From a bacterium (lineage in GTDB: Bacteria > Patescibacteriota > Minisyncoccia > Phycocordibacterales > UBA2100): a DNA stretch of 61,890 nucleotides. The position numbers and the translations under genes are program-made. The DNA is taken from assembly GCA_030648265.1 (NCBI GenBank), contig JAUSHX010000040.1, positions 1 to 61,890 of the forward strand, written 5' to 3'. Shown here in pieces: positions 31,552-61,890 of this stretch (positions are counted from its first letter, which is position 1; every line of letters begins with the position of its first letter). The notes under the pieces were generated by a model. That model was not told where the DNA came from and did no database searches. It saw nothing but the letters and a program-made list of their open reading frames with translations.

Positions 31552-32169
31552 ATGAGGCACGGAACGTTTATTGTGATTGACGGCATCGGCGGGTGTGGTA
31601 AGACGACGCACGCAAAACTTCTTCACGCGAGGATGAGGAAAGGCACCGTGCTCACGCATGAACCGGGCGGAACGCCGCTTGCGGAAAAGATACGGAAACT
31701 TATTTTGCATAATCTAATTCCAACAGCTGATGTAACAACTGAGTTTTTTCTATTTTGGACGGCGCGTGCGGAGCACATGCGAGAAAAGATTGCTCCGGCG
31801 CTTCGCGCGGGCCGTCATGTTATCTGCGACCGTTTTGATTCCTCAACGTTTGCGTTTCAAATATTCGGCGAGAAACATCCGGAACTCACAAAACTTTTTT
31901 GGGAGGCGCGCAAAGTGGTCTTAGGGAAATACGAGCCGGATGCATATATCATTCTTGATATTCCGGTTGCAGTGGCGGAGAAGCGCCGCGCAGGGAGACC
32001 GCCCCGAAAAGACCGTTTTGATGACAATCCACGTGCATTCCAAGGACGGGTGCGAGCCGGCTTCAAAACGTTCGCCGAGGAAATCGGGCAATGTGCGCAC
32101 ATTGTGAATGCCAATCGCGCACCAAAAGAAGTGGAGCAAGATATCTTGCGTATTGTATCTAACTACTGA
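31552..32169 (+). CDS. tmk: Thymidylate kinase
   Basis: ORF 31480..32169 trimmed to M25 (ATG at 31552). MRHGTFIVIDGIGGCGKTT is the P-loop, followed by CDRFDSS. Confidence 0.85.
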   Translation: MRHGTFIVIDGIGGCGKTTHAKLLHARMRKGTVLTHEPGGTPLAEKIRKLILHNLIPTADVTTEFFLFWTARAEHMREKIAPALRAGRHVICDRFDSSTFAFQIFGEKHPELTKLFWEARKVVLGKYEPDAYIILDIPVAVAEKRRAGRPPRKDRFDDNPRAFQGRVRAGFKTFAEEIGQCAHIVNANRAPKEVEQDILRIVSNY

Positions 32170-32318: not shown

Positions 32319-32606
32319 ATGGCCACTAGCGAAACGACCAAGGGAATCGGGAACATTCTTGCCGACTCCCAACGACACGCCGAAATCAGGGAACAGCGGA
32401 TTCGGCCGAACATACGGGAATATACTGTGGGTCCCGGAACGCTGTCCAACCCGCTGATGCCTGGCTGGGACAAGTTCAAGTTCGACAAGTCCAAGATTGA
32501 CCTGACACCAGACCTATGCAACCCACTCTACCACGGCAAGTTGCCAGAGAGCGGAGAGCCTGTGCGTCACCACGGCTTTGTCGACGGTCCCGATCTTTGC
32601 GACTAA
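32319..32606 (+). CDS. Hypothetical small protein
   Basis: 95-aa ORF preceded by AGGAGA, one of the few clear SD-like sequences here. It is followed by a 10-bp GC-rich hairpin at 32631-32661. No recognisable motif. Confidence 0.35.
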   Translation: MATSETTKGIGNILADSQRHAEIREQRIRPNIREYTVGPGTLSNPLMPGWDKFKFDKSKIDLTPDLCNPLYHGKLPESGEPVRHHGFVDGPDLCD

Positions 32607-32719
32607 GTCGTATTGTTGGGATTTTAAATGGGTCTGCGCGAGTGATTTTTGCGCAGACCCATCGCTTACATATTTTAGTCAGTATCAGCGAGTCAATGGT
32701 ATTATTTGACAATCAGTGT

Positions 32720-34402
32720 ATGAATATTGCCGATAATTTAAAACAGGTGCTTGCGCGATCTCTGGGGGAGGCGGGAATCAAAGTTTCCGCGGAATATGTG
32801 GCGCTCGCGCGGCCGAAAGAACTTTCACACGGAGATTACGCGACCGGCGCGGCACTGCAGTACTCCAAGCAGGTTGGCATGCCCCCCGCAAAGCTCGCGG
32901 AAAAAATTGTCGCCGGATTGGGGACATTAAACGGGGTTAAGCGTGTTGAAGTCGTCGCTCCTGGTTTTATAAATTTCCATCTGACGCCGGATACTATCAA
33001 CAATGTTCTAGGGGAGGCGATTGCAAATGAGGAAGCGTGGGGAAGAAATGACTTGCAGAAAGATTCGCGCGTGATGGTGGAGTACACAGACCCCAATCCT
33101 TTCAAGGAATTTCACATTGGCCACTTGATGAGCAATGCAATCGGCGAATCCATTTCTCGCCTCGTAGAATATTCCGGCGCTGAAGTGAAGCGTGCTAACT
33201 ATCAGGGCGACGTGGGGCCGCATGTGGCAAAAGCCATTTGGAGCATTCAAAAACACGGCGGTGACGCGCATGATGCGAATGTTCTTGGAAAAGCGTATGT
33301 GGATGGTTCCAATGCATATGAAAGCGATGCCGAAGCGAAAGCGCAAATTGATGCATTGAACGGAAAAATCTATGACCGCTCTGACCCGCAGGTAAATGCG
33401 ATTTACGATGCGGGGTGCGATGCGTCTCTCAAGCATTTTGAAGAAATCTACAAAACACTTGGTACAAAGTTTGACTATTCTTTTTTTGAAAGTGAAACGG
33501 CGCCATTCGGTAAGAAAATCGTTGAAGAACATCCTGAAATATTTGAGAAAAGCGACGGCGCGATTGTCTACAAAGGGGACGAGAAAAAAGGATTGCATAC
33601 GCGCGTATTTATAAATTCCAAAGGTCTTCCGACCTACGAGGCAAAAGAGCTTGGTCTGGCAAAGAAGAAACACGACACATATCCGTACGACAAATCCATC
33701 GTCATCACCGGAAATGAAGTCAACGAGTATTTCAGAGTGTTGCTGGATGCAATGTCAAAAGTTTATCCTGACCTTGCCACAAAAACCGTTCACATTTCGC
33801 ACGGCATGATGCGCTTGTCTTCCGGCAAGATGTCGTCGCGTACAGGCGATGTAATAACGGGCGAGTCGCTTATCGCAGAATTGAAAGAACGTGCCACCGC
33901 ACGAGCTTCAGAGAGTCGGGCCGATGACGCAGAAAGACTTGCCGAGCAAATTGCGGTTTCTGCGGTGAAGTATCAGATATTAAGACAGGCATCGGGCAAG
34001 GATATTATTTTTGACCGCGAGCGCGCGCTTTCGCTTGAAGGTGATTCGGGGCCGTATCTGCAATACGCGCATGCGCGGGCGTATGCCGTTGTTGAAAGGG
34101 CGAAATCTCAAGGTGTCACCTTGGGGATTCAAAAAGGTGACACCTTGGAACCCAACGACGTTTCCCGCCTCGTCACGCGTTTTCCGGAGGTCGTCTTGTA
34201 TGCGGCGGAAAAGCTTGAGCCGCACTTGCTAGCGAATTATTTGATTTCGCTTGCCGGCGCATTCAACAGTTGGTACGCGCAGGTGCACATTTTGGATGGA
34301 ACGAAAGAAGCCCCGCACAAAGTCGCAATAGTGAACGCGGTTCGTGCGACACTGAAGAATGGCCTGTGGCTTCTGGGTATATCAGCACCCGAGAAAATGT
34401 GA
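32720..34402 (+). CDS. argS: Arginine--tRNA ligase
   Basis: ORF 32516..34402 trimmed to the ATG at 32720 (MNIADNLKQVL). Contains TDPNPFKEFHIGHL (HIGH) and the MSSR variant of KMSK, plus a C-terminal DALR anticodon-binding region. Confidence 0.9.
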   Translation: MNIADNLKQVLARSLGEAGIKVSAEYVALARPKELSHGDYATGAALQYSKQVGMPPAKLAEKIVAGLGTLNGVKRVEVVAPGFINFHLTPDTINNVLGEAIANEEAWGRNDLQKDSRVMVEYTDPNPFKEFHIGHLMSNAIGESISRLVEYSGAEVKRANYQGDVGPHVAKAIWSIQKHGGDAHDANVLGKAYVDGSNAYESDAEAKAQIDALNGKIYDRSDPQVNAIYDAGCDASLKHFEEIYKTLGTKFDYSFFESETAPFGKKIVEEHPEIFEKSDGAIVYKGDEKKGLHTRVFINSKGLPTYEAKELGLAKKKHDTYPYDKSIVITGNEVNEYFRVLLDAMSKVYPDLATKTVHISHGMMRLSSGKMSSRTGDVITGESLIAELKERATARASESRADDAERLAEQIAVSAVKYQILRQASGKDIIFDRERALSLEGDSGPYLQYAHARAYAVVERAKSQGVTLGIQKGDTLEPNDVSRLVTRFPEVVLYAAEKLEPHLLANYLISLAGAFNSWYAQVHILDGTKEAPHKVAIVNAVRATLKNGLWLLGISAPEKM

Positions 34403-34957: not shown

Positions 34958-37942
34958 ATGATTATGGCCGATGCAAAACTGAAATCAGAAACCGCAAAAC
35001 GGGAAGAGGTAACCCTCGCTTTTTGGAAGGAGCACAAAATCTTTGAGAAATCTCTTCAAAAGGACGCGCCCAAGGGTGAATACGTTTTTTACGACGGACC
35101 GCCTTTTGCGACTGGGCTACCTCACTACGGACACATTGTCGCTTCGGTGATTAAGGATGTCGTTCCGCGCTACTGGACGATGCGCGGCTACCATGTGCCG
35201 CGCGTGTGGGGCTGGGATTGCCACGGATTGCCGATAGAGAACATCGTGGAGAAAGAACTCGGTTTCAAGCACAAGAAAGACATCAAGGAATACGGTATAG
35301 CAAAATTCAACGAGCGGTGCCGCGAGCGGGTGCTCACGTATGCATCGGAGTGGGAGAAAATAATCCCGCGCATCGGCCGGTGGGCCGACATGGAGCACGC
35401 CTACCGCACGATGGACAAACCGTTCATGGAATCCGTCTGGTGGGTGTTCAAACAAATCTACGACCAAGGGTTGGTCTATAAGGATTACCGCTCAATGCAC
35501 ATCTGCCCGCGATGCGAGACGACTCTTTCCCAGCAGGAAGTCGCGGAAGGGTATAAGGATGTAAAAGATATTTCGGTAACGGTGAAGTTTAAATTGAAGA
35601 ATCCGGTTAAACTTCCATTCAAGATACCCGCGAACGCAAGTGTGTATATGCTCGCATGGACGACAACGCCCTGGACTCTACCAGGCAATGTGGCACTTGC
35701 TGTAAATAATGACGTTGATTATCGACTAGTATTAGATATCGATAAAAATGAGGTTTTGATTGTCTCGGATCGATATCACACCTTGAATCAGGATTTCCAC
35801 AATACACCCAATTTTGCGATGCTTCCGACGCAAAGTGGAGCAGAGGCACTTAAGGGGCATCAACTGGTCGGTCTCGAATACGAACCACTTTTTGATTACT
35901 ACGCCAACGACACAACGTTAAAGAACCGTGAAAACGGCTGGAAAGTCTATGCGGCGGATTTCATAACGACCGAAGCAGGTACAGGAATTGCGCACGAGGC
36001 ACCGGCGTTCGGCGCTGACGATTGGGAACTCGCTAAAAAAGAGAATTTGCCGTTCGTTCAACACGTAAACATGGACGGCACATTCAAGCCGGAAGTGGCT
36101 GATTTTGCGGGAATAGAGGTAAAGCCGATTGATGACCCGCAGGCGACCGATGTTCTGATAATTAAGCATCTCGCGCACAAAGGCCTGCTCTTCTCAAAGG
36201 AAAAAGTTGAACACTCATATCCGCATTGTTGGCGCTGTGAGACACCACTCCTCAACTACGCGACATCCTCATGGTTTGTTTCCGTTACAAAGCTCAAAGA
36301 AAACCTGCTTGAGAACGCCAAGAATATCAATTGGTCGCCTGCGCACATCAAAGAAGGGCGTTTTGGGGATTGGCTCCAAGGCGCGCGCGATTGGTCAATT
36401 TCCCGCCAACGCTTTTGGGCGAGCGTAATTCCGATATGGAAATGTGAGAAATGTAAGAAACTGAAAGTATTCGGAAGCGTCGCGGAACTTGAGGAAGCGA
36501 GCGGAAAGAAAGTTGACGATTTGCATAAACACATTGTTGATGAAATTACCGTGCCATGCGTGCCCTCCGAAGCCTTGGCGAAGGAGGGCGGGTGCGGCGG
36601 CGAGATGAGGCGTGTTCCCGATGTGTTGGACACATGGTTTGATTCCGGTTCCATGCCATACGGCGAGCGGCACTACCCATTTGCGTTTTCGACGGATTCT
36701 AAAGGTACGACCTTGGACCCCACAAAGCTCGCACCTTGGTCAAAAACGTTTCCCGCACAATTTATCGCCGAAGGTCTGGACCAGACGCGCGCGTGGTTCT
36801 ACTACCTGCATGTATTCGCAGGCGCCCTGTTCAAGAAAAATGCTTTTCAGAATGTAATCGTCAACGGAATCGTGCTTGCGGAAGACGGCAAGAAGATGTC
36901 CAAGAAACTTCAGAATTATCCCGACCCCATGGAAGTGGTTGATAAGTATGGCGCCGATGCGCTCCGCTTTTATCTGCTTTCGTCTCCCGTTATGCAGGCC
37001 GAGAATTTGAGCTTCTCGGAAAAAGGCGTGGACGAAGTTGCAAAGAAAAATATCAGCCGGCTCGGTAACGTTTTGGCTTTCTATCAAATGTATGCGGATG
37101 ATACCAGGCGGGGGAGCGACAGTGCCAATGTACTTGATAGATGGATTCTTGCACGGCTAGACCAGCTGATTCGCGAATCCACGCAAGGTTTTGAAAAGTA
37201 CCAACTGGACACGGCGACGAGACCGATAGTTCTTTTTATTGACGACCTTTCGGTGTGGTATTTGCGGAGAAGCCGCGAACGTTTCAAGAAGGGCGGGGAC
37301 GATGCGAAAGCGGCACGCGCGATTTTGCGGCACGTCCTCTACACACTCTCGCTGATTATCGCGCCGTCAATGCCGTTCTTGGCCGAGCATCTGTTTCAGG
37401 CGGTGAAAGAAGGGAACGACCCGGAGAGCGTGCATCTTGCAGAGTGGCCTTCGTCTTCGCAGACAGGATTTCTTGCGCAGTTGTTCGGCAAAAAAGACAG
37501 CATTCTTCGCGACATGGTAGCGGCGCGAAGCATCGTCACACAAGCGCTTGAAGCTAGGGACGTAGCGAAGATAAAAGTGCGTCAGCCATTACAGAAGTTA
37601 ACAGTTAACAGTAAACAGTTGACAGGGAGAAACAAAAAGGCGCTTCTTCAACTTATACAAGATGAGGTTAACGTCAAGGAAATTGAGACGGGCGACACTA
37701 TTATGCTTGACACGAATATCACCGATGAGTTGCGCGAGGAGGGCATCGTGCGAGACAAACTTCGAGAAGTTCAGACTTTCCGAAAAGAGAAGAGTCTCCG
37801 GCCCGGAGAGCACACTTCGTATACGATGAAGGTCTCAGAAGCAGAGAAAAGCATAGTTGAAAAGCACAAAGAGATTATTGAGATGAGAACGGATTCAACC
37901 ATCAGCGTGTCACTTTCTAGGGATGATTTTGATTCACAATAA
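34958..37942 (+). CDS. ileS: Isoleucine--tRNA ligase
   Basis: 994-aa ORF with PPFATGLPHYGHI (HIGH), a CP1 editing region and KMSKKLQNY (KMSKS). Confidence 0.95.
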   Translation: MIMADAKLKSETAKREEVTLAFWKEHKIFEKSLQKDAPKGEYVFYDGPPFATGLPHYGHIVASVIKDVVPRYWTMRGYHVPRVWGWDCHGLPIENIVEKELGFKHKKDIKEYGIAKFNERCRERVLTYASEWEKIIPRIGRWADMEHAYRTMDKPFMESVWWVFKQIYDQGLVYKDYRSMHICPRCETTLSQQEVAEGYKDVKDISVTVKFKLKNPVKLPFKIPANASVYMLAWTTTPWTLPGNVALAVNNDVDYRLVLDIDKNEVLIVSDRYHTLNQDFHNTPNFAMLPTQSGAEALKGHQLVGLEYEPLFDYYANDTTLKNRENGWKVYAADFITTEAGTGIAHEAPAFGADDWELAKKENLPFVQHVNMDGTFKPEVADFAGIEVKPIDDPQATDVLIIKHLAHKGLLFSKEKVEHSYPHCWRCETPLLNYATSSWFVSVTKLKENLLENAKNINWSPAHIKEGRFGDWLQGARDWSISRQRFWASVIPIWKCEKCKKLKVFGSVAELEEASGKKVDDLHKHIVDEITVPCVPSEALAKEGGCGGEMRRVPDVLDTWFDSGSMPYGERHYPFAFSTDSKGTTLDPTKLAPWSKTFPAQFIAEGLDQTRAWFYYLHVFAGALFKKNAFQNVIVNGIVLAEDGKKMSKKLQNYPDPMEVVDKYGADALRFYLLSSPVMQAENLSFSEKGVDEVAKKNISRLGNVLAFYQMYADDTRRGSDSANVLDRWILARLDQLIRESTQGFEKYQLDTATRPIVLFIDDLSVWYLRRSRERFKKGGDDAKAARAILRHVLYTLSLIIAPSMPFLAEHLFQAVKEGNDPESVHLAEWPSSSQTGFLAQLFGKKDSILRDMVAARSIVTQALEARDVAKIKVRQPLQKLTVNSKQLTGRNKKALLQLIQDEVNVKEIETGDTIMLDTNITDELREEGIVRDKLREVQTFRKEKSLRPGEHTSYTMKVSEAEKSIVEKHKEIIEMRTDSTISVSLSRDDFDSQ

Positions 37943-54230: not shown

Positions 54231-54282
54231 GTACCCAAGGTGAGACCTTAAAGAGTCACTCTCAAGGTCTCACCTTGGGTAC
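54231..54282 (+). terminator. 19-bp perfect hairpin after the 53390 gene
   Basis: GTACCCAAGGTGAGACCTT, a 14-nt loop, then AAGGTCTCACCTTGGGTAC. No T-run follows, so it may act as a stabiliser or processing site rather than a classical terminator. Confidence 0.45.
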
Positions 54283-55070: not shown

Positions 55071-58000
55071 ATGAAAAGGTCAATATTAAAACTTATGAGT
55101 AAATCATTAGCAACAAAAAATGTTGCGGGAGTGCTCATTGGCGTTGGTCTGGTATTAGCGTTCTCGTTCTCTTTCGTCACAACGGCGAAGGCGGACGCGC
55201 TCTCTGATCTCCAGGCGCAAGTCAATGCGCTTCTCGCACAAATTGCAGCATTGCAGGGCGCTAGCGCAAGCACGTCCGGCGGCGCATGCTTCACCTTCAC
55301 AACCAGCGCAACAGTTGGAACAAAGGGAGGGGAAGTAATGGAAATTCAGAAATTCCTTAACGGTCACGGGGCACAAGTTGCCGCATCAGGCGCAGGTTCT
55401 CCCGGAAATGAGACGAGCACTTTCGGTCAACTGACCAAGGCGGCAGTCGCAAAGTTCCAGGCGGCAAATGGCGTCTCGCCTACGGCCGGATACTGGGGAC
55501 CTCTCACTCGCGCAAAGGCGAATAGTCTTTGCACAACCGGCGGAACTACGGGCGGCACAACCGGCACAACCGGCACAACCGGTACAACAGGTGGAACTAC
55601 AGGCGGCACAACCGGCGGAACAACTGGAGGCACAGTGACCCCAACGGGTCCTGGCATCACAGTCTCGTCCTCGGCACAGCCGGCAAACTCTCTTGCTCCG
55701 CAAGGCGCATCGCGAGTTCCGTTCACGACATTCGCACTTGCCAACAACACAGGTGCAGAAGTGAGTGTGACGGGTGTTACGGTGCAGCGTTCCGGTCTCG
55801 GAGTGGACGCGAACTTTTCCGGAATCGTCTTGGTTGACGAACAAGGTCTCCAAGTCGGAATCTCAAAGACTCTCAACTCCAACCACCAGGCAACTATCGG
55901 CGACACGTTCACCTTAAGCGCCGGTCAGACAAAGACCTTCACGGTCTCCGGCAACATGGCGGCATCGCTCACGAGTTACGCCGGCCAAATCGTCTCAATC
56001 TCGGTCGTCGGCGTGAACACTTCTGTTCCCGTCAACGGCTCGCTTCCGATTACGGGCGCACAGCAGACGATAAACAGCTCGCTTTCTATCGGTACGGTTA
56101 CACCGGCGATTTCTTCGCTTGACCCGAATTCGGCGCAGACAAAGAACATCGGCGACACGGGGCTCAAGTTCTCCGGCATCCGCCTCACCGCGGGTTCCAA
56201 TGAGGACGTGAAGTTCTTCTCTATCCGGTGGCGCTTAAACGGCACGGTTTCTGCGAACGACCTCGCGAACATCACGACGGTTGTAAGCGGAACCAGCTAT
56301 CCGACGACAGTTTCTTCGGACGGCCGCTACTTCACGGCAGTCTTTGCGGGCGGTATCCTTATCGCGAAGGGTAATTCCATAGATGTAACCATTCAGGGCG
56401 ACATCACCGGTACTAACGCTTCGGCCCGCACGGTACAGTTTGACGTAGACAAGACTGCCGACATCTACTTTGTCGGACAGCTCTATGGCTACGGCGTGGG
56501 TCTCGCGGCCACAACCGTGGGTACTGCGGCCAGTACGGATACATCGCTCATCACGACGGTTACGCCGTGGTTTGACGGTTCCGTATTCACGATTTCCGGC
56601 GCTTCGGTAACGACACTCGCAAAGGCGACTTCAGTTCCGGCGCAAAACGTCGCTGTTAACGTTCCGAACCAGCCTTTGGGCGGTTACGTAACTAACTTCA
56701 CGGGAGAACCGGTCTCGATTCAGTCAACGATATTCTCCGTCGCGACCTCTTCTGGGCAGTCGGGCTACCTCACAAACGTTTCCATCTATGATGAAAACGG
56801 CGTGGTAGTTGCGGGCCCAGTGGACACATCCGGTACTGGAAGTACGCTTACCTTCACGGACACGATTACGTATCCTGTTGGTCTGCACACGTACACGCTC
56901 AAGGGCAAGATTGCTTCCACTTACACAAACGGCGGAACAATCCAGCTCTCAACGGCTCCAGCAACCCAGTGGACGAGCGTTACCGGTCAGTCAACCGGCA
57001 ACACAGTTACGCTTACGACGACTAACTTCACGCTGAACACGATGACCGTGCGTGCGGCTGCGCTCACGATGGGCCTGTCCACGTCGCCATCTGCTCAAAC
57101 GATAGTCGCAGGCGGACAAAGTGTCGTGTTTGCAAACATCCAGCTTGACGCATCACAATCAGGCGAAGATGTGCGCATCAACTCGGTTCCTCTATACGCC
57201 AAACAGGCGTATGTAGCGACAGCTGCTGCGGTTACGAACCTGACAACGTGTCAGATAAGTGACGCTGCAGGAAACGTGCTCAACTACGGTGCAAACGTCA
57301 TCAACGCTCTCACGAACACGGATGCAACAACCTCTCCGACAACCAGCCAAAAGGTATTCTCACTCAACAATTCGTTGACGATTCCGAAAGGCACGGTTGT
57401 GACACTTACACTTAAGTGTAATGTGGGGAGTTCGGCAACTGCGGGTGATGCGTACACGTTTGGCACATACAGCGCGGGTACTGCATTCTCCTTCACCGGC
57501 GTAACATCCGGCAATTCAACTGACACGACTGTCCGTTCTTCAGTCGCGGGTACACAGACGATTGCCAGTGCGGGCACAGTAGCAGTTTCCACCGACTCGT
57601 CCTCTCCGTCCTATGCGCTAAGCGCGGGCGGTACGAATGGCGTGACCATCGGTGTCATCAAGTTCCGTCCGGCAAACGAGGCGGTTAACCTGACAAAAAT
57701 CGGTTTGACCCTCGGTGCATCCGGCGGTAACGGTTCGTACACCGGCGCATCCGGCGCTCAAGACCTCGTCAACGCATACATCTACAACGGCACAACGTTG
57801 GTCGGTACAGCATCCTTCACAGGTAATGCGACTACTGCCACCTCTACGCTGTTGTCTTCTGTATCTTTGCCGAAGGATGTGGACACCAAGCTCACCATCA
57901 AGATTGACCTTGCGGATGTCGGCACTTCACAGCCGGGCACTCCGAATGACCTGGTCGCGATTGATATCTTGAACTTTGAAGGTTCAGGCGCTCAATCCGG

Positions 58001-58628
58001 AACCACGATTATGGGCGGCGCGGGCGTCGGCATGACAGCCGTCGCAGGAGTCCGTCTACTCAACACCTACCCGACAGTCGCGCAGGGAACACTTGCGACC
58101 GGTTCGGGAAGTGCTTCGGCAGGCAAACTCATTCGCTTCTCGGTGACGGCTAACTCTAAGGGAGATGTGGGCATCGCCCGCTTCACCTTCACGGTTTCCA
58201 CGACAACCGGAGTGACAATCGCGGGTCTCGGCCTCTATGGCTACACGGATTCCGGCTACTCAACGCCGATTTCCGGTCAGGGTGCGAGCGGCCTTATCGG
58301 CGCGACTCTGACGGCGACTTCAACCTCCAACATTGCAATCGGACCGCTTTCAGCGATAGCTCCGATTGAAGTCCCGGCAGGTGGAACCTACTACTTTGAG
58401 CTTCGCGGCTCTGTAGGAAGTTTGACAACCGGTTCTTCCATCACCACGACATTGCTCGGTGATGCAAGTGCGGTTACCACTCTTGCGGCAACCTCTACAA
58501 TCAGTGGTAACTTCATCTGGTCTGAAAACGCGACAACCACAACGGTTGCCACAGTAGCGGACTGGGCTAACGGTGCGAGTGTAGTCGGTCTGCCTTCAGG
58601 CGGTCTCATCCAGACTGTTTCTTACTAG
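55071..58628 (+). CDS. Large cell-surface protein: signal/TM anchor, coiled coil, peptidoglycan-binding domain, (T/G)n linker, then about 950 aa of beta-rich repeats
   Basis: 1185-aa ORF. Hydrophobic N-terminus VAGVLIGVGLVLAFSF. The PG_binding_1-like segment is GGEVMEIQKFLNGHG...FGQLTKAAVAKFQAANGVSPTAGYWGPLT. The linker is TTGGTTGGTTGTTGTTGTTGG.... The rest is T/S/A/G/V-rich and Cys-poor. A strong terminator follows. Confidence 0.8.
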   Translation: MKRSILKLMSKSLATKNVAGVLIGVGLVLAFSFSFVTTAKADALSDLQAQVNALLAQIAALQGASASTSGGACFTFTTSATVGTKGGEVMEIQKFLNGHGAQVAASGAGSPGNETSTFGQLTKAAVAKFQAANGVSPTAGYWGPLTRAKANSLCTTGGTTGGTTGTTGTTGTTGGTTGGTTGGTTGGTVTPTGPGITVSSSAQPANSLAPQGASRVPFTTFALANNTGAEVSVTGVTVQRSGLGVDANFSGIVLVDEQGLQVGISKTLNSNHQATIGDTFTLSAGQTKTFTVSGNMAASLTSYAGQIVSISVVGVNTSVPVNGSLPITGAQQTINSSLSIGTVTPAISSLDPNSAQTKNIGDTGLKFSGIRLTAGSNEDVKFFSIRWRLNGTVSANDLANITTVVSGTSYPTTVSSDGRYFTAVFAGGILIAKGNSIDVTIQGDITGTNASARTVQFDVDKTADIYFVGQLYGYGVGLAATTVGTAASTDTSLITTVTPWFDGSVFTISGASVTTLAKATSVPAQNVAVNVPNQPLGGYVTNFTGEPVSIQSTIFSVATSSGQSGYLTNVSIYDENGVVVAGPVDTSGTGSTLTFTDTITYPVGLHTYTLKGKIASTYTNGGTIQLSTAPATQWTSVTGQSTGNTVTLTTTNFTLNTMTVRAAALTMGLSTSPSAQTIVAGGQSVVFANIQLDASQSGEDVRINSVPLYAKQAYVATAAAVTNLTTCQISDAAGNVLNYGANVINALTNTDATTSPTTSQKVFSLNNSLTIPKGTVVTLTLKCNVGSSATAGDAYTFGTYSAGTAFSFTGVTSGNSTDTTVRSSVAGTQTIASAGTVAVSTDSSSPSYALSAGGTNGVTIGVIKFRPANEAVNLTKIGLTLGASGGNGSYTGASGAQDLVNAYIYNGTTLVGTASFTGNATTATSTLLSSVSLPKDVDTKLTIKIDLADVGTSQPGTPNDLVAIDILNFEGSGAQSGTTIMGGAGVGMTAVAGVRLLNTYPTVAQGTLATGSGSASAGKLIRFSVTANSKGDVGIARFTFTVSTTTGVTIAGLGLYGYTDSGYSTPISGQGASGLIGATLTATSTSNIAIGPLSAIAPIEVPAGGTYYFELRGSVGSLTTGSSITTTLLGDASAVTTLAATSTISGNFIWSENATTTTVATVADWANGASVVGLPSGGLIQTVSY
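55533..55634 (+). repeat. Imperfect tandem repeat (about 9/12 nt) encoding the Thr/Gly linker
   Basis: ACAACCGGCGGAACTACGGGCGGCACAACCGGCACAACCGGCACAACCGGTACAACAGGTGGAACTACAGGCGGCACAACCGGCGGAACAACTGGAGGCACA. Confidence 0.8.
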
Positions 58629-58703: not shown

Positions 58704-58735
58704 AAACCCCCTCTCCGAAAGGAGAGGGGGTTTTG
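58704..58735 (+). terminator. Rho-independent terminator of the surface-protein gene
   Basis: CCCCCTCTCC-GAAA-GGAGAGGGGG followed by TTTT. Confidence 0.85.
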
Positions 58736-58847
58736 CATTTCTTGAGGGGAGAAAATTTGGTGAGTCCGGCATCTCCGAGGTGACTCCTTGGCATTTGCCT
58801 GCCTGCGCTGAAGCTTCGGCGGGCAGGCAAGGTGTCTCCTCGGGCAT

Positions 58848-59723
58848 TTGCATATGCTTTTGCATTTGGTTAATAAGCGCGGTACTATGCTCACCACGAT
58901 GGCTCCGAGCTCAAAAAGCCAGACAATCGGCATACTCATCGCACTCGCCGTATTAATCGGCGGTGGATATCTCTTTATGCGCGGTACGGCGCCATCCTCA
59001 AGCATGCCCGCGCCTCTTTCTACCGCATCAACTACAAATTCGGATATCGCCGGAGGGACACTGGGTATTACCGGAACGGGGGGATACACAGTCAAAGAAG
59101 TGCCCACAGGAAACAATGCTCCGAAGGCGCCAGACTACAACACGCCGCTCGTGTTTTCTGCCACCTCCAATCTTAATATAGAACAGCAATCTGCTTTACA
59201 AGGGCAGGTGACCGCCTTACGCGTACAGTTAGCCAAAAATCCTTCAAGCTACGTCGCGTGGCTTGCTCTCGGAAGAGCATTTAAGACTGCGGGAGATTAT
59301 GCGCAGGCCGCAGAAATATGGGCATACCTCTCTCTTAATTGGCCGACCGATGCTATTGCTTTCGCGAATCTTGGCGATTTGTATATGAATTTCATCAAGG
59401 ATTATCCGAAAGCGGAAGCGAGCTATCTGGGTGCGATACGGAATAATCCGCTCCAAGTGGACGCATACAGAAACCTCTTCTCGTTGTATACGAATCTGTA
59501 CACAACGCACGCTTCTGCAGCCGAAGACATTCTGAAAAAAGGCATAGCAAACAATTCCGATGCCGTTGATTTGTATGTCTTGCTTGCGCGCTACTATCGC
59601 GACTCGGGTCGTACAGCAGAGGCGCGGGCAGAGTACGATTCTGCAATCGTGCAAGCAAAGAAACAGCCCAGTTCGGCGGCACTTGTAGCCGATATAACTT
59701 CTGAGCAGGCCGCTCTCAAGTAA
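58848..59723 (+). CDS. Membrane-anchored TPR-repeat protein
   Basis: 291-aa ORF; the start could instead be the ATG at 58887. It has a TM helix (IGILIALAVLIGGGYLF) followed by TPR-like repeats (AWLALGRAFKTAGDYAQAAEIW..., ANLGDLYMNFIKDYPKAEASY...). Confidence 0.65.
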   Translation: MHMLLHLVNKRGTMLTTMAPSSKSQTIGILIALAVLIGGGYLFMRGTAPSSSMPAPLSTASTTNSDIAGGTLGITGTGGYTVKEVPTGNNAPKAPDYNTPLVFSATSNLNIEQQSALQGQVTALRVQLAKNPSSYVAWLALGRAFKTAGDYAQAAEIWAYLSLNWPTDAIAFANLGDLYMNFIKDYPKAEASYLGAIRNNPLQVDAYRNLFSLYTNLYTTHASAAEDILKKGIANNSDAVDLYVLLARYYRDSGRTAEARAEYDSAIVQAKKQPSSAALVADITSEQAALK

Positions 59724-59787
59724 GATTGTGATTCAGCAGGGTGGCGGGAGCACCCCTTATCACTTTGTTTTGATAAACAAAGCTCCA

Positions 59788-59810
59788 ACTCCAAGGACTC
59801 CCCTTGGAGT
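59788..59810. repeat. REP-like hairpin, left flank of the Y1 transposase gene
   Basis: ACTCCAAGG-ACTCC-CCTTGGAGT, a 9-bp stem with a 5-nt loop, 24 nt upstream of the ATG. Confidence 0.8.
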
Positions 59811-59833
59811 CAAAGAAGTGATAATATTTAGCA

Positions 59834-60502
59834 ATGGAGAGGAAATTCCAGTTTGAGGTAGGCGAGTGTTACCACATTTTCAATCGCGGAGTGGAAAAGC
59901 GGATTATATTCCATGACGACAAGGATTGGACAAGGTTTCAGAATCTACTTTATCTAGCGAACGGAGACAAACCGCTCGTCTTTAAACTCCTCCAAGGACT
60001 CCCCTTGGAGCAGGAGAGAGGGGGTATGTATGCCAGTATTATTGCTTACGTACTTATGCCGAATCATTTTCACATTATCGGACGGGAAGATAAAAACAGC
60101 GGACTAAGCAGATTGATGGGCAAATTATCAACCGCGTATTCCATGTACTTCAATGTGAAGTACGCTCGGAGCGGGCCTTTGTTGTGTCGCCCTTTTCGCG
60201 CACTGCATATAGACACAGACGACTATTTTCGGTGGGTACTTTCATATGTTCACCTAAACCCGCTAGACTTGATGCACCCCGGATGGAAGGAAGAAGGGAA
60301 AATAGATTTTGATCAGGCCGTTAAATTCCTTCAATCGTTTGCATACTCAAGTTACCCAGACTATTTTCTTGCAAAACGGCTGGCAACGAAGATCATCAAC
60401 AAAGATGGCTTGCCAGTGGAAATATCCGACCTTGAAAATGTTGAAAAAATGCTTGAAGAATTTCAGACGCCGCCGGAAAATTCGTCGCTCGCTTGGGATT
60501 AA
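59834..60502 (+). mobile_element. IS200/RAYT-type Y1 (HUH) transposase gene
   Basis: 222-aa ORF with CYHIFNRGVEKRIIF, IIAYVLMPNHFHIIG (the HUH motif) and YFRWVLSYVHLNPL (catalytic Tyr region). It is flanked by inverted copies of the same hairpin. Confidence 0.75.
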
Positions 60503-60537
60503 TCCAAGGGGAGTCCTTGGACACCTCCTTGGAGTTG
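60503..60537. repeat. REP-like hairpin (inverted orientation) plus half-repeat, right flank of the transposase gene
   Basis: TCCAAGGGGAGTCCTTGGA (60503-60521) is the reverse complement of the left hairpin. CCTTGGAGTTG (60527-60537) is the reverse complement of 59786-59796. Confidence 0.8.
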
Positions 60538-60547
60538 AGTGTCCCTA

Positions 60548-60575
60548 TTGACTTAAAAACATCCGTAAGTATACT
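60548..60575 (+). promoter_or_regulatory. Sigma70-like promoter, candidate rRNA operon promoter
   Basis: TTGACT (60548-60553), a 16-nt spacer, then TATACT (60570-60575). It lies about 510 nt upstream of the 16S 5' end, and the AT-rich leader between them has no credible ORF. Confidence 0.4.
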
Positions 60576-61081
60576 TTCCTTCACCATCGCTCCTGCGCTG
60601 GACTTCGTAGCTCCGTTAAGGAGCGAAGTAGTCATGGGCGTGGGTCCTGCTTTGCATAAAGCTTCGCAGGATAAACGGTGTACCGAAAAACTGCTATGAA
60701 ATACTTCGGAAGGACTTTGAAAACTAAATAGACAATTGTACGCAAAACCAAAAATAAGATTGGTAAGTAAGTAAAACACACCCCGAAAAAGACGTAAATC
60801 GCTTCGCGATTAAGTCTCTCGGGGCGAGCACACAAGCAAGTAATTGAGTAAATAGAAAATACATTTGGAATTCTAGGAGGATTTCAAGTGTTAAGTAATA
60901 AACAGTTAGAAACAAAAGAAATATCCATTCTTTTGTTTCGTCCATCCAAAAAAAGAAATTAGAACTTAGTTCAAACATCTTTTCACTGTGAATAGCGGAG
61001 ACTACTAGTGAGGGCAATGCCTTCATGACGGTCTTTTGCGAAAACACGGGGGTGAACATCACGTAACAGTGGTGATTCACT

Positions 61082-61890
61082 TATACTTAGAGTTTGATCC
61101 TAGCTCAGGGTGAACGCTGGCGGCATGGATAAGGCATGCAAGTCACGGGGGCCGCAAGGCAACCGGCAGACGAGGTAGTAACACGTAGGAACGTACCCCA
61201 GAGTCTGGTATAGCTCGCCGAAAGGCGGGGTAATCCCAGATAGTCCCCTTACCACTTTTGCACTTCAGAAAAATAAAATGTACTCGTGTCATGCTCGCAT
61301 GGCATGGATATTGTTATAAAAATTGGAGATCAAAAGTGGTAAGGGGTAAAGGAGCAATTCGCTCCGGGAGCGGCCTGCGTTGTATCAGCTAGTTGGTAGG
61401 GTAATGGCCTACCAAGGCTATGACGCATAGGGGCGCTGAGAGGCGGACCCCCACCGATGGAATTGAGATACGGTCCATACTCCTACGGGAGGCTGCAGTC
61501 GAGAATCTTCGGCAATGGGCGAAAGCCTGACCGAGCGATGCCGCGTGGTGGATGAAGCGCTTCGGCGCGTAAACACCTTTTATGAGGGAGAAAGCTGTGC
61601 CTCACTATTGTTCGGCACCGCAGAACATCGCAGAACGAACGCAGAAGGTCGCAGAAGTAAATGCATCCCGCATTTTTTCTGCGTAATTCAGCGTCAAGTC
61701 TGCGTAAGTCTGCGCTGTGGCGAGTGATAGCGAGGCACAGATTGATGTTACCTCATGAATAAGGGGCTCCTAACTCTGTGCCAGCAGGAGCGGTAATACA
61801 GAGGCCCCAAGCGTTACCCGGAATTACTGGGCGTAAAGAGTGCGTAGGTGGTCGTGTTAGTCGTTTGTTAAATCTCCCGGCTCAACCGGG
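61082..61890 (+). rRNA. rrs: 16S ribosomal RNA, 5' portion (continues past the right edge), with two expansion segments
   Basis: AGAGTTTGATCCTAGCTCAG at 61089, ACTCCTACGGGAGGCTGCAG, GTGCCAGCAGGAGCGGTAATAC and ATTACTGGGCGTAAAG appear in the correct order. Extra helices lie at 61245-61346 and 61595-61740. Confidence 0.95.

Follow-up and report, generated by a model that had tools for sequence, protein, structure and literature searches.

A RAYT-like gene accompanied by three copies of one hairpin

We analysed a 61,890-nt stretch of contig JAUSHX010000040.1 (hereafter the window, meaning this whole 61.9-kb stretch) from an ultra-small groundwater bacterium of the Patescibacteria. Close to its right end lies a gene, single-copy in the window, for a 222-residue protein resembling the REP-associated tyrosine transposases (RAYTs; REP, repetitive extragenic palindrome), and the gene is accompanied by a short hairpin that occurs upstream of it, in frame within it and, inverted, directly after it (Table 1). 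The 21-mer CTCCAAGGACTCCCCTTGGAG, with an 8-bp stem and the loop ACTCC, is exact at 59789-59809 and 59990-60010, both on the forward strand; the first of these copies ends 24 nt 5' of the ATG at 59834, and the second forms codons L53-E59 of the open reading frame (ORF), where CTC CAA GGA CTC CCC TTG GAG is translated as LQGLPLE. The third copy is the reverse complement at 60502-60522 with two mismatches, both at the outermost stem positions, and its core TCCAAGGGGAGTCCTTGGA (60503-60521) stands directly after the TAA stop codon (60500-60502). No copy of the 21-mer other than these three was found in the window at up to three mismatches, and 100 shuffles yielded no match to the pattern. Folded as single-stranded DNA (ssDNA), the upstream copy reached -9.1 kcal/mol (z -3.8) and the internal copy -8.8 kcal/mol (z -2.8).

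Downstream of the third copy, the half-site CCTTGGAGT at 60527-60535 is identical to 59802-59810 (three matches in the window vs 0.29 expected), and the 3' region has three arms with two alternative pairings. The extra arm is a degenerate remnant of a second hairpin; some relatives have inverted doublets at that place (L002, L022, L029, and L049). A preliminary description of this DNA, made from its letters alone, had reported a hairpin 24 nt upstream of the gene, in frame inside it and inverted after its stop codon, together with an additional half-site, and both the coordinates of the hairpins and the half-site were borne out.

Table 1 Features of the RAYT-like cassette and of related repeats in the window
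Feature	Position	Strand	Remarks
Upstream cognate hairpin	59788..59810	+	Stem ACTCCAAGG/CCTTGGAGT, loop ACTCC; orientation as internal copy; about -46 to -24 relative to ATG
Probable extended -10 element TGaTAATAT	59819..59827	+	Ends 6 nt before ATG; read from sequence
RAYT-like HUH/Y1 ssDNA endonuclease-transposase homologue, ORF of 222 aa	59834..60502	+	Motifs, AlphaFold2 model, 4ER8 match
Internal cognate hairpin, in frame, codons 53-59	59990..60010	+	Loop between helix 29-41 and strand 67-74
HUH motif H78-F79-H80 of LMPNHFH	60065..60073	+	H78 and H80 invariant in 92 relatives
Catalytic tyrosine Y138 in YVHLNP	60245..60247	+	Invariant in 92 relatives; Y---NP is the class 2/RAYT signature (PMC6006769)
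3' cognate hairpin, inverted	60502..60522	-	First base is the last base of the TAA stop
Partial extra 3' arm CCTTGGAGT	60527..60535	+	Can pair alternatively with 60503-60509
Intergenic REPIN-like inverted doublet, related subtype	54233..54282	.	CCCAAGGTGAGACCTT, spacer aaagagtcactc, TCAAGGTCTCACCTTGGG; upstream of the giant PG_binding_1 gene
Inverted doublet, same related subtype, in frame inside argS (ORF 32516..34402)	34109..34149	.	AAGGTGTCACCTT ... AAGGTGACACCTT; encodes QGVTLGIQKGDTLE

The encoded protein, its family and its inheritance

The AlphaFold2 model of the protein (pLDDT 91.9) has a beta-alpha-beta-beta-alpha-beta-alpha core with a single catalytic tyrosine on the helix after the HUH motif. 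Its best match among solved structures in a Foldseek search was 4ER8, the complex of Escherichia coli TnpA(REP) with a REP hairpin (E 6e-6), and lower-ranked matches included 2XM3, 2A6O, and 2F4F, the ISDra2, IS608, and IS200 transposases ranking behind 4ER8. By sequence, the single protein had no significant match in the PDB, and a profile reached only E ~0.2 to ISDra2 TnpA. Besides the catalytic residues, N142 was invariant and P143 was conserved in at least 90% of the 92 aligned relatives, and no tnpB-like gene was present among the ORFs of the window. The evidence supports an intact HUH/Y1 enzyme that is of RAYT type and not an IS200 transposase. The preliminary description had likewise proposed a Y1 HUH enzyme with inverted, REP-like cognate flanks and had pointed to the catalytic tyrosine and a companion tnpB as features to look for; the tyrosine and the HUH motif are intact, and the companion gene is missing.

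The gene is a member of a large family that occurs chiefly in Patescibacteria. Over 1100 close relatives were recovered, most of the named ones being annotated as "transposase" of Patescibacteria or Paceibacterota and some bearing the automatic JGI label "RayT". In a library clustered at 50% identity, 11,329 representatives were found at E <= 1e-3 and 2,658 at E <= 1e-10. The NCBIfam model NF047646 (REP_Tyr_transpos) was matched weakly by all 30 members tested, with a best E-value of 3e-13, and a match to the Pfam family Y1_Tnp (PF01797) is precomputed for most relatives. The earlier remark that no REP/RAYT system was known to have been described for the candidate phyla radiation (CPR) agrees with our literature search, in which no paper linking such systems with Patescibacteria or CPR was found, although some relatives already carry the automatic label.

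In the window, the gene follows genes for a 1185-residue PG_binding_1 protein (55071..58628) and a TPR protein (58848..59723). Homologues of both also adjoin the gene in at least 12 loci in which the RAYT-like protein shares only 43-58% identity with that of the window (loci with the same neighbours: L005, L010, L011, L013, L022, L024, L034, L041, L043, L050, L055, L064, and L202), and the conserved neighbour across loci is a protein of about 1100-1200 residues with an N-terminal PG_binding_1 domain. Paralogues inside one metagenome-assembled genome (MAG) were 42-75% identical to each other, each with its own hairpin; near-identical copies of the cassette were not seen among them, and a search of viral contigs returned no relatives of the gene. 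In the window the TPR gene comes first and the cassette second; the order is reversed in L001 (82% identical), L010, L011, L013, and L064, and this change of side suggests a short-range relocation. Judged by synteny and divergence, the gene appears to behave as a domesticated, vertically inherited, low-copy RAYT and not as an insertion sequence (IS).

Conservation of the internal copy at the nucleotide level

To compare the internal copy across the family, we used 80 related loci from Patescibacteria MAGs, 41-83% identical, and read the codons aligned to residues 52-60. The preliminary description had considered that a REP might have been inserted into the gene and tolerated in a loop. This did not hold up: the internal copy is no insertion, because the segment has the same length in orthologues and QG-PL is a conserved motif. 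Of the 81 relatives, about half have a stem of 7-15 bp at the same codons, at +153 to +166 nt from the ATG, and the stem variants differ between lineages in a compensatory manner (GGT/ACC, GGC/GCC, GGA/TCC, GTACAAGG/CCTTGTAC, CATAGGC/GCCTATG, and GCGAAGGA/TCCTTCGC). The hairpin is retained even where the encoded peptide is wholly different, as in IPIGLAYVF, SEGRSFAE, and LRGGLSFPE.

Codon usage pointed in the same direction. In the 32 ORFs with the motif QGx[PSTA]L, the leucine codon is TTG in 31, vs 18% elsewhere in the same ORFs, and the glutamine codon is likewise CAA in 31. Furthermore, the first base of codon 57 complements the silent third base of the Gly55 codon (GGG/CCC in 12 cases, GGT/ACC in 9, and GGC/GCC and GGA/TCC in 1 each), and it is this silent base that dictates whether residue 57 is P, T, A or S. 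Pairing was then assessed in an unfiltered, codon-anchored alignment of 51 loci with 500 shuffles and slid controls. In the named helix, 67% of cells were paired, vs 57.5 +/- 1.2% in shuffles, and the covariation score was 0.279, vs 0.153 when shuffled, a value reached by none of the 500 shuffles and compared with 0.10-0.16 in the slid controls. Peptide conservation alone is therefore insufficient to produce the codon and pairing patterns. Orthologues that encoded the same peptide with other nucleotides and no hairpin would have spoken against the hairpin, as the preliminary description had noted; instead, they keep it by means of pairing codons. We conclude from these alignments that the internal copy is an old nucleotide-level feature, which did not arise by recent insertion or as a side effect of peptide conservation.

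Concerted change of the three sites between lineages

Where an internal hairpin is clear, the flanks mostly have the same one. Among the 36 loci of this kind, the core of the locus's own hairpin (at most one mismatch) was found in the 120 nt preceding the ATG in 33 and between -70 and +80 of the stop codon in 30, whereas control searches with the hairpins of other loci succeeded in only 20 of 994 tests upstream and 15 of 994 at the stop (about 2%). When all 81 genes were considered, 43 had a 12-mer or longer word common to the internal region and their own flanks. In a neighbour-joining tree this trait was scattered over all clades but one AT-rich clade, and its distribution was bimodal, the internal region being either identical to the flanks or unrecognisable.

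The turnover can be followed at both short and long distances. All three copies of the window have the loop ACTCC, all five copies of L001 (82% identical) have ACTAC, and in the coding copy the substitution is silent. In remote members, the palindromes are perfect, 25-29 nt long and unrelated in sequence: ATGTTTAGAGGTT-C-AACCTCTAAACAT in L203 and CTAGTCAACACG-T-CGTGTTGACTAG in L204, each present upstream, inside the ORF and after the stop, and AATGTAACGGGGTC-A-GACCCCGTTACATT in L201, present upstream and inside the ORF. In all three of the members read as DNA, the palindrome lies within an insertion in the loop, and insertions of 20-45 residues occur in the same loop in the distant members P0130, P0152, P0184, P0207, P0227, P0244, P0245, and P0255. 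As shown by the loci compared, the three copies evolve in concert, each lineage having its own hairpin sequence that is identical or nearly so at all three places.

Promoter, gene ends and cassette layout

Nearly all of the 81 genes have a strong hairpin upstream of the start codon. A TATAAT-like hexamer ending 3-10 nt (mode 6-7) before the start codon was found in 49 of 77 genes, vs 4.3 expected. In the window, the ATG is not preceded by a Shine-Dalgarno sequence, and the extended -10 element in front of it was not listed by a simple sigma-70 scan, which is why it is counted here as inferred. With the -10 box so close to the start codon, the mRNA is probably leaderless, with the ATG as the transcription start, and the upstream hairpin would then lie outside the transcript over the -35 region; taking the ATG as the probable start of transcription, this applies to the hairpin of the window as well. 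The commonest offset places the 3' arm of the hairpin at -35. We do not claim, however, that a hairpin arm is the -35 element in general, since its spacing to the -10 box is only modally fixed.

At the other end of the gene, the stop codon of relatives is very often part of the loop or stem of the 3' hairpin. Because the hairpin overlaps the reading frame there, several relatives terminate in a second peptide resembling IQGxPLE (FQGESLE, IQGLPLEK, and IQGKALE), and the same placement at the stop end accounts for the 3' copy of the window reading IQGESLD in another frame. Many flanking copies are inverted doublets able to form long REPIN-like hairpins, and some 3' copies are followed by T-runs, as in intrinsic terminators (L014, L032, and L041).

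Dispersed REP/REPIN-like copies

The preliminary description had also raised the possibility that the hairpin is confined to its three sites. This is true of the exact 21-mer in the window, but not of the looser family CAAGG-N3-5-CCTTG, for which five matches were found against 0.14 expected; AAGGT-N3-ACCTT likewise had five matches against 0.06 expected. The additional sites form two inverted doublets, at 34109-34149 and 54233-54282. The intergenic doublet at 54233-54282 folds as DNA into a 19-bp hairpin (-24.3 kcal/mol). Its subtype, GGT/ACC, is unlike that of the hairpin at the RAYT-like gene and may be owned by a second paralogue elsewhere in the genome. An owner within the window, as a RAYT paralogue or pseudogene, was rejected: the sole weak tblastn match (32065-32167, E 0.34) is spurious and lies inside a thymidylate-kinase-like gene. 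A further single AAGGTACGACCTT was found at 36702-36714. The doublet in argS occupies a variable loop where the DALR anticodon-binding domain begins; it is also present in the 90%-identical orthologue P0269 (GVTLKIQKGVTL), and other orthologues have an unrelated loop that is two residues shorter.

Beyond the window, a scan of metagenome contigs with TCCAAGGACTCCCCTTGGA returned at least 120 stretches. Among the matches listed there were 153 exact copies of the 19-mer, 130 of them in loci without a relative of the gene, occurring as singles and as inverted doublets; among the same matches, 51% of copies lay outside long open frames, vs 25% of random positions, and several were orthologous sites from different samples. 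Far copies were rare in the 80 genome loci (10 in 1.07 Mb). Inverted doublets were found in L019, L021, L022, L023, L028, L029, L037, L041, L047, L049, L054, and L055 as well as in many metagenome loci. The flanks of 145 copies showed only a weak, palindromic T-T-A/T-A-A extension of the stem. Taken from these scans, REP/REPIN-like dispersal appears to exist at low copy number, consistent with the small numbers that have been reported for RAYT group 1.

When contigs of the groundwater metagenome were aligned to 59300-61000, depth climbed from 67 to 82, 86, and 106 over the hairpins, an excess contributed by further contigs of that metagenome in which the hairpin also occurs. The depth of these additional contigs is lower (7-38), and most of them therefore represent other genomes. 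No informative excision or inversion joints at the hairpins were found in this alignment.

Comparison with known systems

A REPtron is a RAYT/TnpA(REP) gene flanked by its REPs, as in the E. coli yafM type (PDB 4ER8; Nunvar 2010, Ton-Hoang 2012, Messing 2012). The present cassette resembles a REPtron in the HUH/Y1 fold with Y---NP, in the low-copy, syntenic and vertically inherited gene, in cognate hairpins on both sides that are mostly inverted, in the co-variation of hairpin and enzyme between lineages, in the occurrence of multiple divergent paralogues in one genome, all with hairpins of their own, and in REPIN-like inverted doublets. On the other hand, its hairpins have no GTAG or CGTC tag at the foot, and their stems are short and perfect, without the bulge that the E. 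coli enzyme needs. The hairpin copy number is low and the protein scores far below the cut-off of the curated RAYT model. Unlike a REPtron, the cassette has a third, in-frame copy at a conserved site, its upstream copy is tied to the promoter of an apparently leaderless mRNA, and the stop codon often lies inside the 3' copy.

REPs in frame inside tnpA(REP) genes have been described in TnpA(REP) subclass 2.4, which corresponds to RAYT group 4 of Bertels; they vary in number, length and sequence and were read as tolerated, peripheral and harmless insertions (Quentin et al. 2018, PMC6006769). Common to both cases are a cognate REP within its own gene that leaves the frame unbroken, in addition to flanking copies, and a location at the protein surface, distant from the catalytic site. 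In contrast to subclass 2.4, the copy described here is single and occupies a fixed site N-terminal to the HuH motif, in the alphaA-beta2 loop (residues 53-59, before H78), in orthologues of equal length. The tyrosine motif is YVHLNP rather than YIxNNP, and the hosts are Patescibacteria rather than mainly Cyanobacteria and Bacteroidetes.

By motif comparison only, the protein has the signature of subclass 2.1 (NHFH, YVHLNP, YSSYPDYF, and 222 aa, with G-LFQGRFKA in relatives). This subclass equals RAYT group 1 of Bertels and is characterised by the motifs NH[YF]H, FQ, and Y[IV]HLNP, an SS tail and a length of about 238 aa (PMC6006769). The TIRYTs of this subclass (Di Nocera 2013) share the motifs, the length of about 220-240 aa and the low copy number, and they have flanking repeats at set distances which sometimes overlap the gene ends (PMC3733652). 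The difference lies in the flanks, which are short hairpins here, whereas subclass 2.1 was reported to lack REP-like hairpins and to have terminal inverted repeats with GGGGWSAS instead (PMC6006769). GGGGWSAS was found in only 1 of 78 upstream and 1 of 78 downstream regions of the related loci, and no helix-turn-helix or DnaA_C-like tail domain was detected by Pfam in the present protein.

Elements of the IS200/IS605 group have the same catalytic fold and subterminal hairpins recognised as ssDNA, and the left-end hairpin of IS200 also controls tnpA expression. They differ in that the tyrosine motif is Y---Q, the protein has about 150 aa, near-identical copies are numerous, the hairpins are directly oriented and a tnpB gene is often present; none of this was seen here.

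Interpretation and alternative explanations

We consider it probable, at roughly 0.6, that this is a RAYT-like HUH/Y1 gene in a REPtron-like cassette in which enzyme-mediated copying keeps the three sites matched and the sites autoregulate the gene. Since the sites stay matched despite turnover, we infer copying at the DNA level: their identity over distances of 200-700 nt, with complete replacement of the sequence between lineages, would need it. The simplest agent would be the enzyme's own cleave-and-rejoin activity on hairpin ssDNA, an activity that would also scatter a few REP/REPIN-like copies elsewhere. With three sites in cis, the enzyme, or extrusion of the hairpins, would most likely hold down expression of its own gene, with an operator upstream at -35, an intragenic block at the internal copy, and a combined terminator and insulator at the 3' copy. 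Low expression would keep a potentially genotoxic nuclease scarce. Autoregulation by the three sites is thus put forward as probable from the layout. Self-targeting or regulatory use of the hairpin, the other option of the preliminary description, would correspond to the reading preferred here.

Several observations weigh against this reading. Roughly half of the family, including the whole of one AT-rich clade, has either no internal hairpin or only a decayed one, so that this copy is dispensable. In L020, L025, L052, and L056, the flanking copies agree with each other and differ from the internal copy by one base, so that exchange with the internal site would be slower than among extragenic copies. 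The distance from hairpin centre to -10 box has its mode at 27-28 nt in only 14 of 49 genes and spreads from 9 to 41 nt, and the orientation of the flanking copies is mixed (opposite in 19 of 28 loci, same in 9). Oriented flanks of the 145 copies contain no conserved guide or tag tetranucleotide such as GTAG or CGTC at the hairpin foot. The window protein scores 21.6 bits with PF01797, under the gathering cut-off of 23, and 34.6 bits with NF047646, for which the equivalog cut-off is 80. Finally, the locus was present only in DNA runs of the groundwater metagenome and in no RNA run.

The main rival is that the internal hairpin is a neutral passenger: an ancestral REP landed once in a tolerant surface loop and has since been overwritten by the current REP variant, without any function of its own. 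Its loss or decay in about half of the lineages, with the catalytic residues kept, supports this explanation, and so does the hypervariability of the loop, where the insertions of distant members fall exactly. The in-gene REPs of subclass 2.4 were likewise regarded as peripheral and harmless by Quentin et al. (PMC6006769), and the related doublet in the argS loop indicates that in-frame accommodation is not unique to the RAYT-like gene. Nevertheless, lineages with unrelated hairpins have a cognate copy in this same loop, including perfect palindromes of 25-29 nt, and the bimodal distribution also argues against passive residence; repeated re-targeting of a neutral site would need a strong site preference that itself needs explanation. 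We regard the passenger as somewhat unlikely. The opposite view, that the in-frame hairpin is a working part, is also tentative and in our opinion unlikely: the enzyme would recognise the site in its own coding sequence, throttling or switching its gene and/or keeping a selection-protected substrate template, so that nuclease and repeat would be re-matched as one unit throughout Patescibacteria. A more specific proposal makes the in-frame copy, shielded by selection on the protein, the heritable template for flanking and dispersed hairpins, with enzyme and substrate on one piece of DNA. Such a master copy would fit the presence of an internal copy wherever the hairpin family has turned over, as well as the synonymous loop change that is mirrored in all flanking copies between the window and L001. 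It is distinctly unlikely, given that in L020, L025, L052, and L056 several flanking or dispersed copies share a variant without an internal counterpart, which fits exchange among extragenic copies better, and that the AT-rich clade retains flanking hairpins with no internal one.

Three alternatives remain. That the hairpins work in the mRNA, on stability, translation pausing or termination, appears improbable: the upstream copy lies 5' of the -10 box of a probably leaderless transcript and would not be in the mRNA, flanking copies occur in either orientation, and the fold of the family is that of a nuclease binding ssDNA hairpins. Transcription of the internal and 3' copies and the T-runs after some of the latter speak for it; the excess of sense-strand G-T wobbles over A-C mismatches (13 vs 7) would do so too but is not significant. 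An active insertion sequence of the IS200/IS605 type, with the flanking hairpins as its left and right ends, would resemble IS200 in its length of about 735 bp and in combining subterminal hairpins with a Y1 gene, and one could further cite the many relatives on contigs of 1-2 kb and the opposite positions of the cassette around the TPR gene in the window and L001. However, short contigs are the norm in the collection searched, synteny is kept over deep divergence, no near-identical copies were seen, and the protein, with its tail domain and 222 residues, has Y---NP and not the Y---Q of IS200. The lack of tnpB and of viral relatives, the RAYT as best structural match, and flanking hairpins that are mostly inverted where those of IS200/IS605 are direct make this explanation very improbable. 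The idea that QGLPLE is simply a functional peptide and the palindrome a coincidence of codons retains practically no likelihood. G55, P57, and L58 were at least 90% conserved in a first alignment, and several relatives terminate in the same peptide, but the overlap of the 3' hairpin with the frame explains the latter. Pairing and covariation, the fixation of synonymous sites to pairing codons with residue 57 following the silent base of Gly55, retention of the hairpin where the peptide wholly changes, and recurrence of the sequence in non-coding flanks refute it.

In-frame REPs in tnpA(REP) genes were known already, in another subclass (2.4) and at another site. What is new is an in-gene copy conserved at a fixed site, rather than sporadic insertion, and the taxonomic range, by which REP/RAYT biology extends to the reduced genomes of CPR. 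Moreover, a family with the motifs of RAYT group 1/subclass 2.1 has cognate hairpins here, though that group was reported without REPs. How RAYTs and their REPs or REPINs remain matched over the long term, and what benefit RAYTs bring to the cell, are open questions in the field. The family constitutes a compact and highly replicated natural experiment on them, since many lineages have different hairpins at three set places, one of which is protein-coding. Its layout gives testable predictions on the autoregulation of a potentially genotoxic nuclease and a way to approach how fast, and in which direction, one repeat is copied onto another. If the in-frame hairpin were indeed a working part, it would represent a general solution in Patescibacteria to the problem of how a domesticated HUH nuclease and its repeats retain a common specificity.

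Other features near the gene

The preliminary description had remarked that the element adjoins the rRNA operon. This proximity is incidental: a 16S gene, which starts at 61082 in the window, lies near only 1 of 80 related loci, and adjacency to it was rejected as part of the system. The 16S gene (61082-61890) is cut by the window end, and its 809 nt span only model positions 1-617, with about 190 extra nucleotides; these are consistent with the insertions common in CPR 16S genes and, by eye, fall at about 61240-61350 and 61600-61745.

The top sigma-70-like promoter match of the region, at 60548-60575 (TTGACT, 16 nt, TATACT; 10/12), lies just past the 3' hairpin, about 500 nt before the 16S gene. 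It may serve as promoter of the rRNA, and if so the 3' hairpins would stand between two transcription units. Two GC-rich hairpins unrelated to the cognate type were seen between the giant gene and the TPR gene, at 58704-58733 (AAACCCCCTCTCC-gaaa-GGAGAGGGGGTTT) and 58798-58829 (TGCCTGCCTGC...GCGGGCAGGCA), the former resembling an intrinsic terminator. The DnaA-box-like motif TTATCC[AC]CA is not present beside the gene of the window. It was about six times denser within 200 nt of the gene in the related loci (13 in 32 kb vs 84 in 1.16 Mb elsewhere in the loci), a density that may reflect intergenic sequence only, and it occurs near the gene in L005, L014, L025, L031, L049, L052, L055, L056, L059, and L060, where it often adjoins the hairpin.

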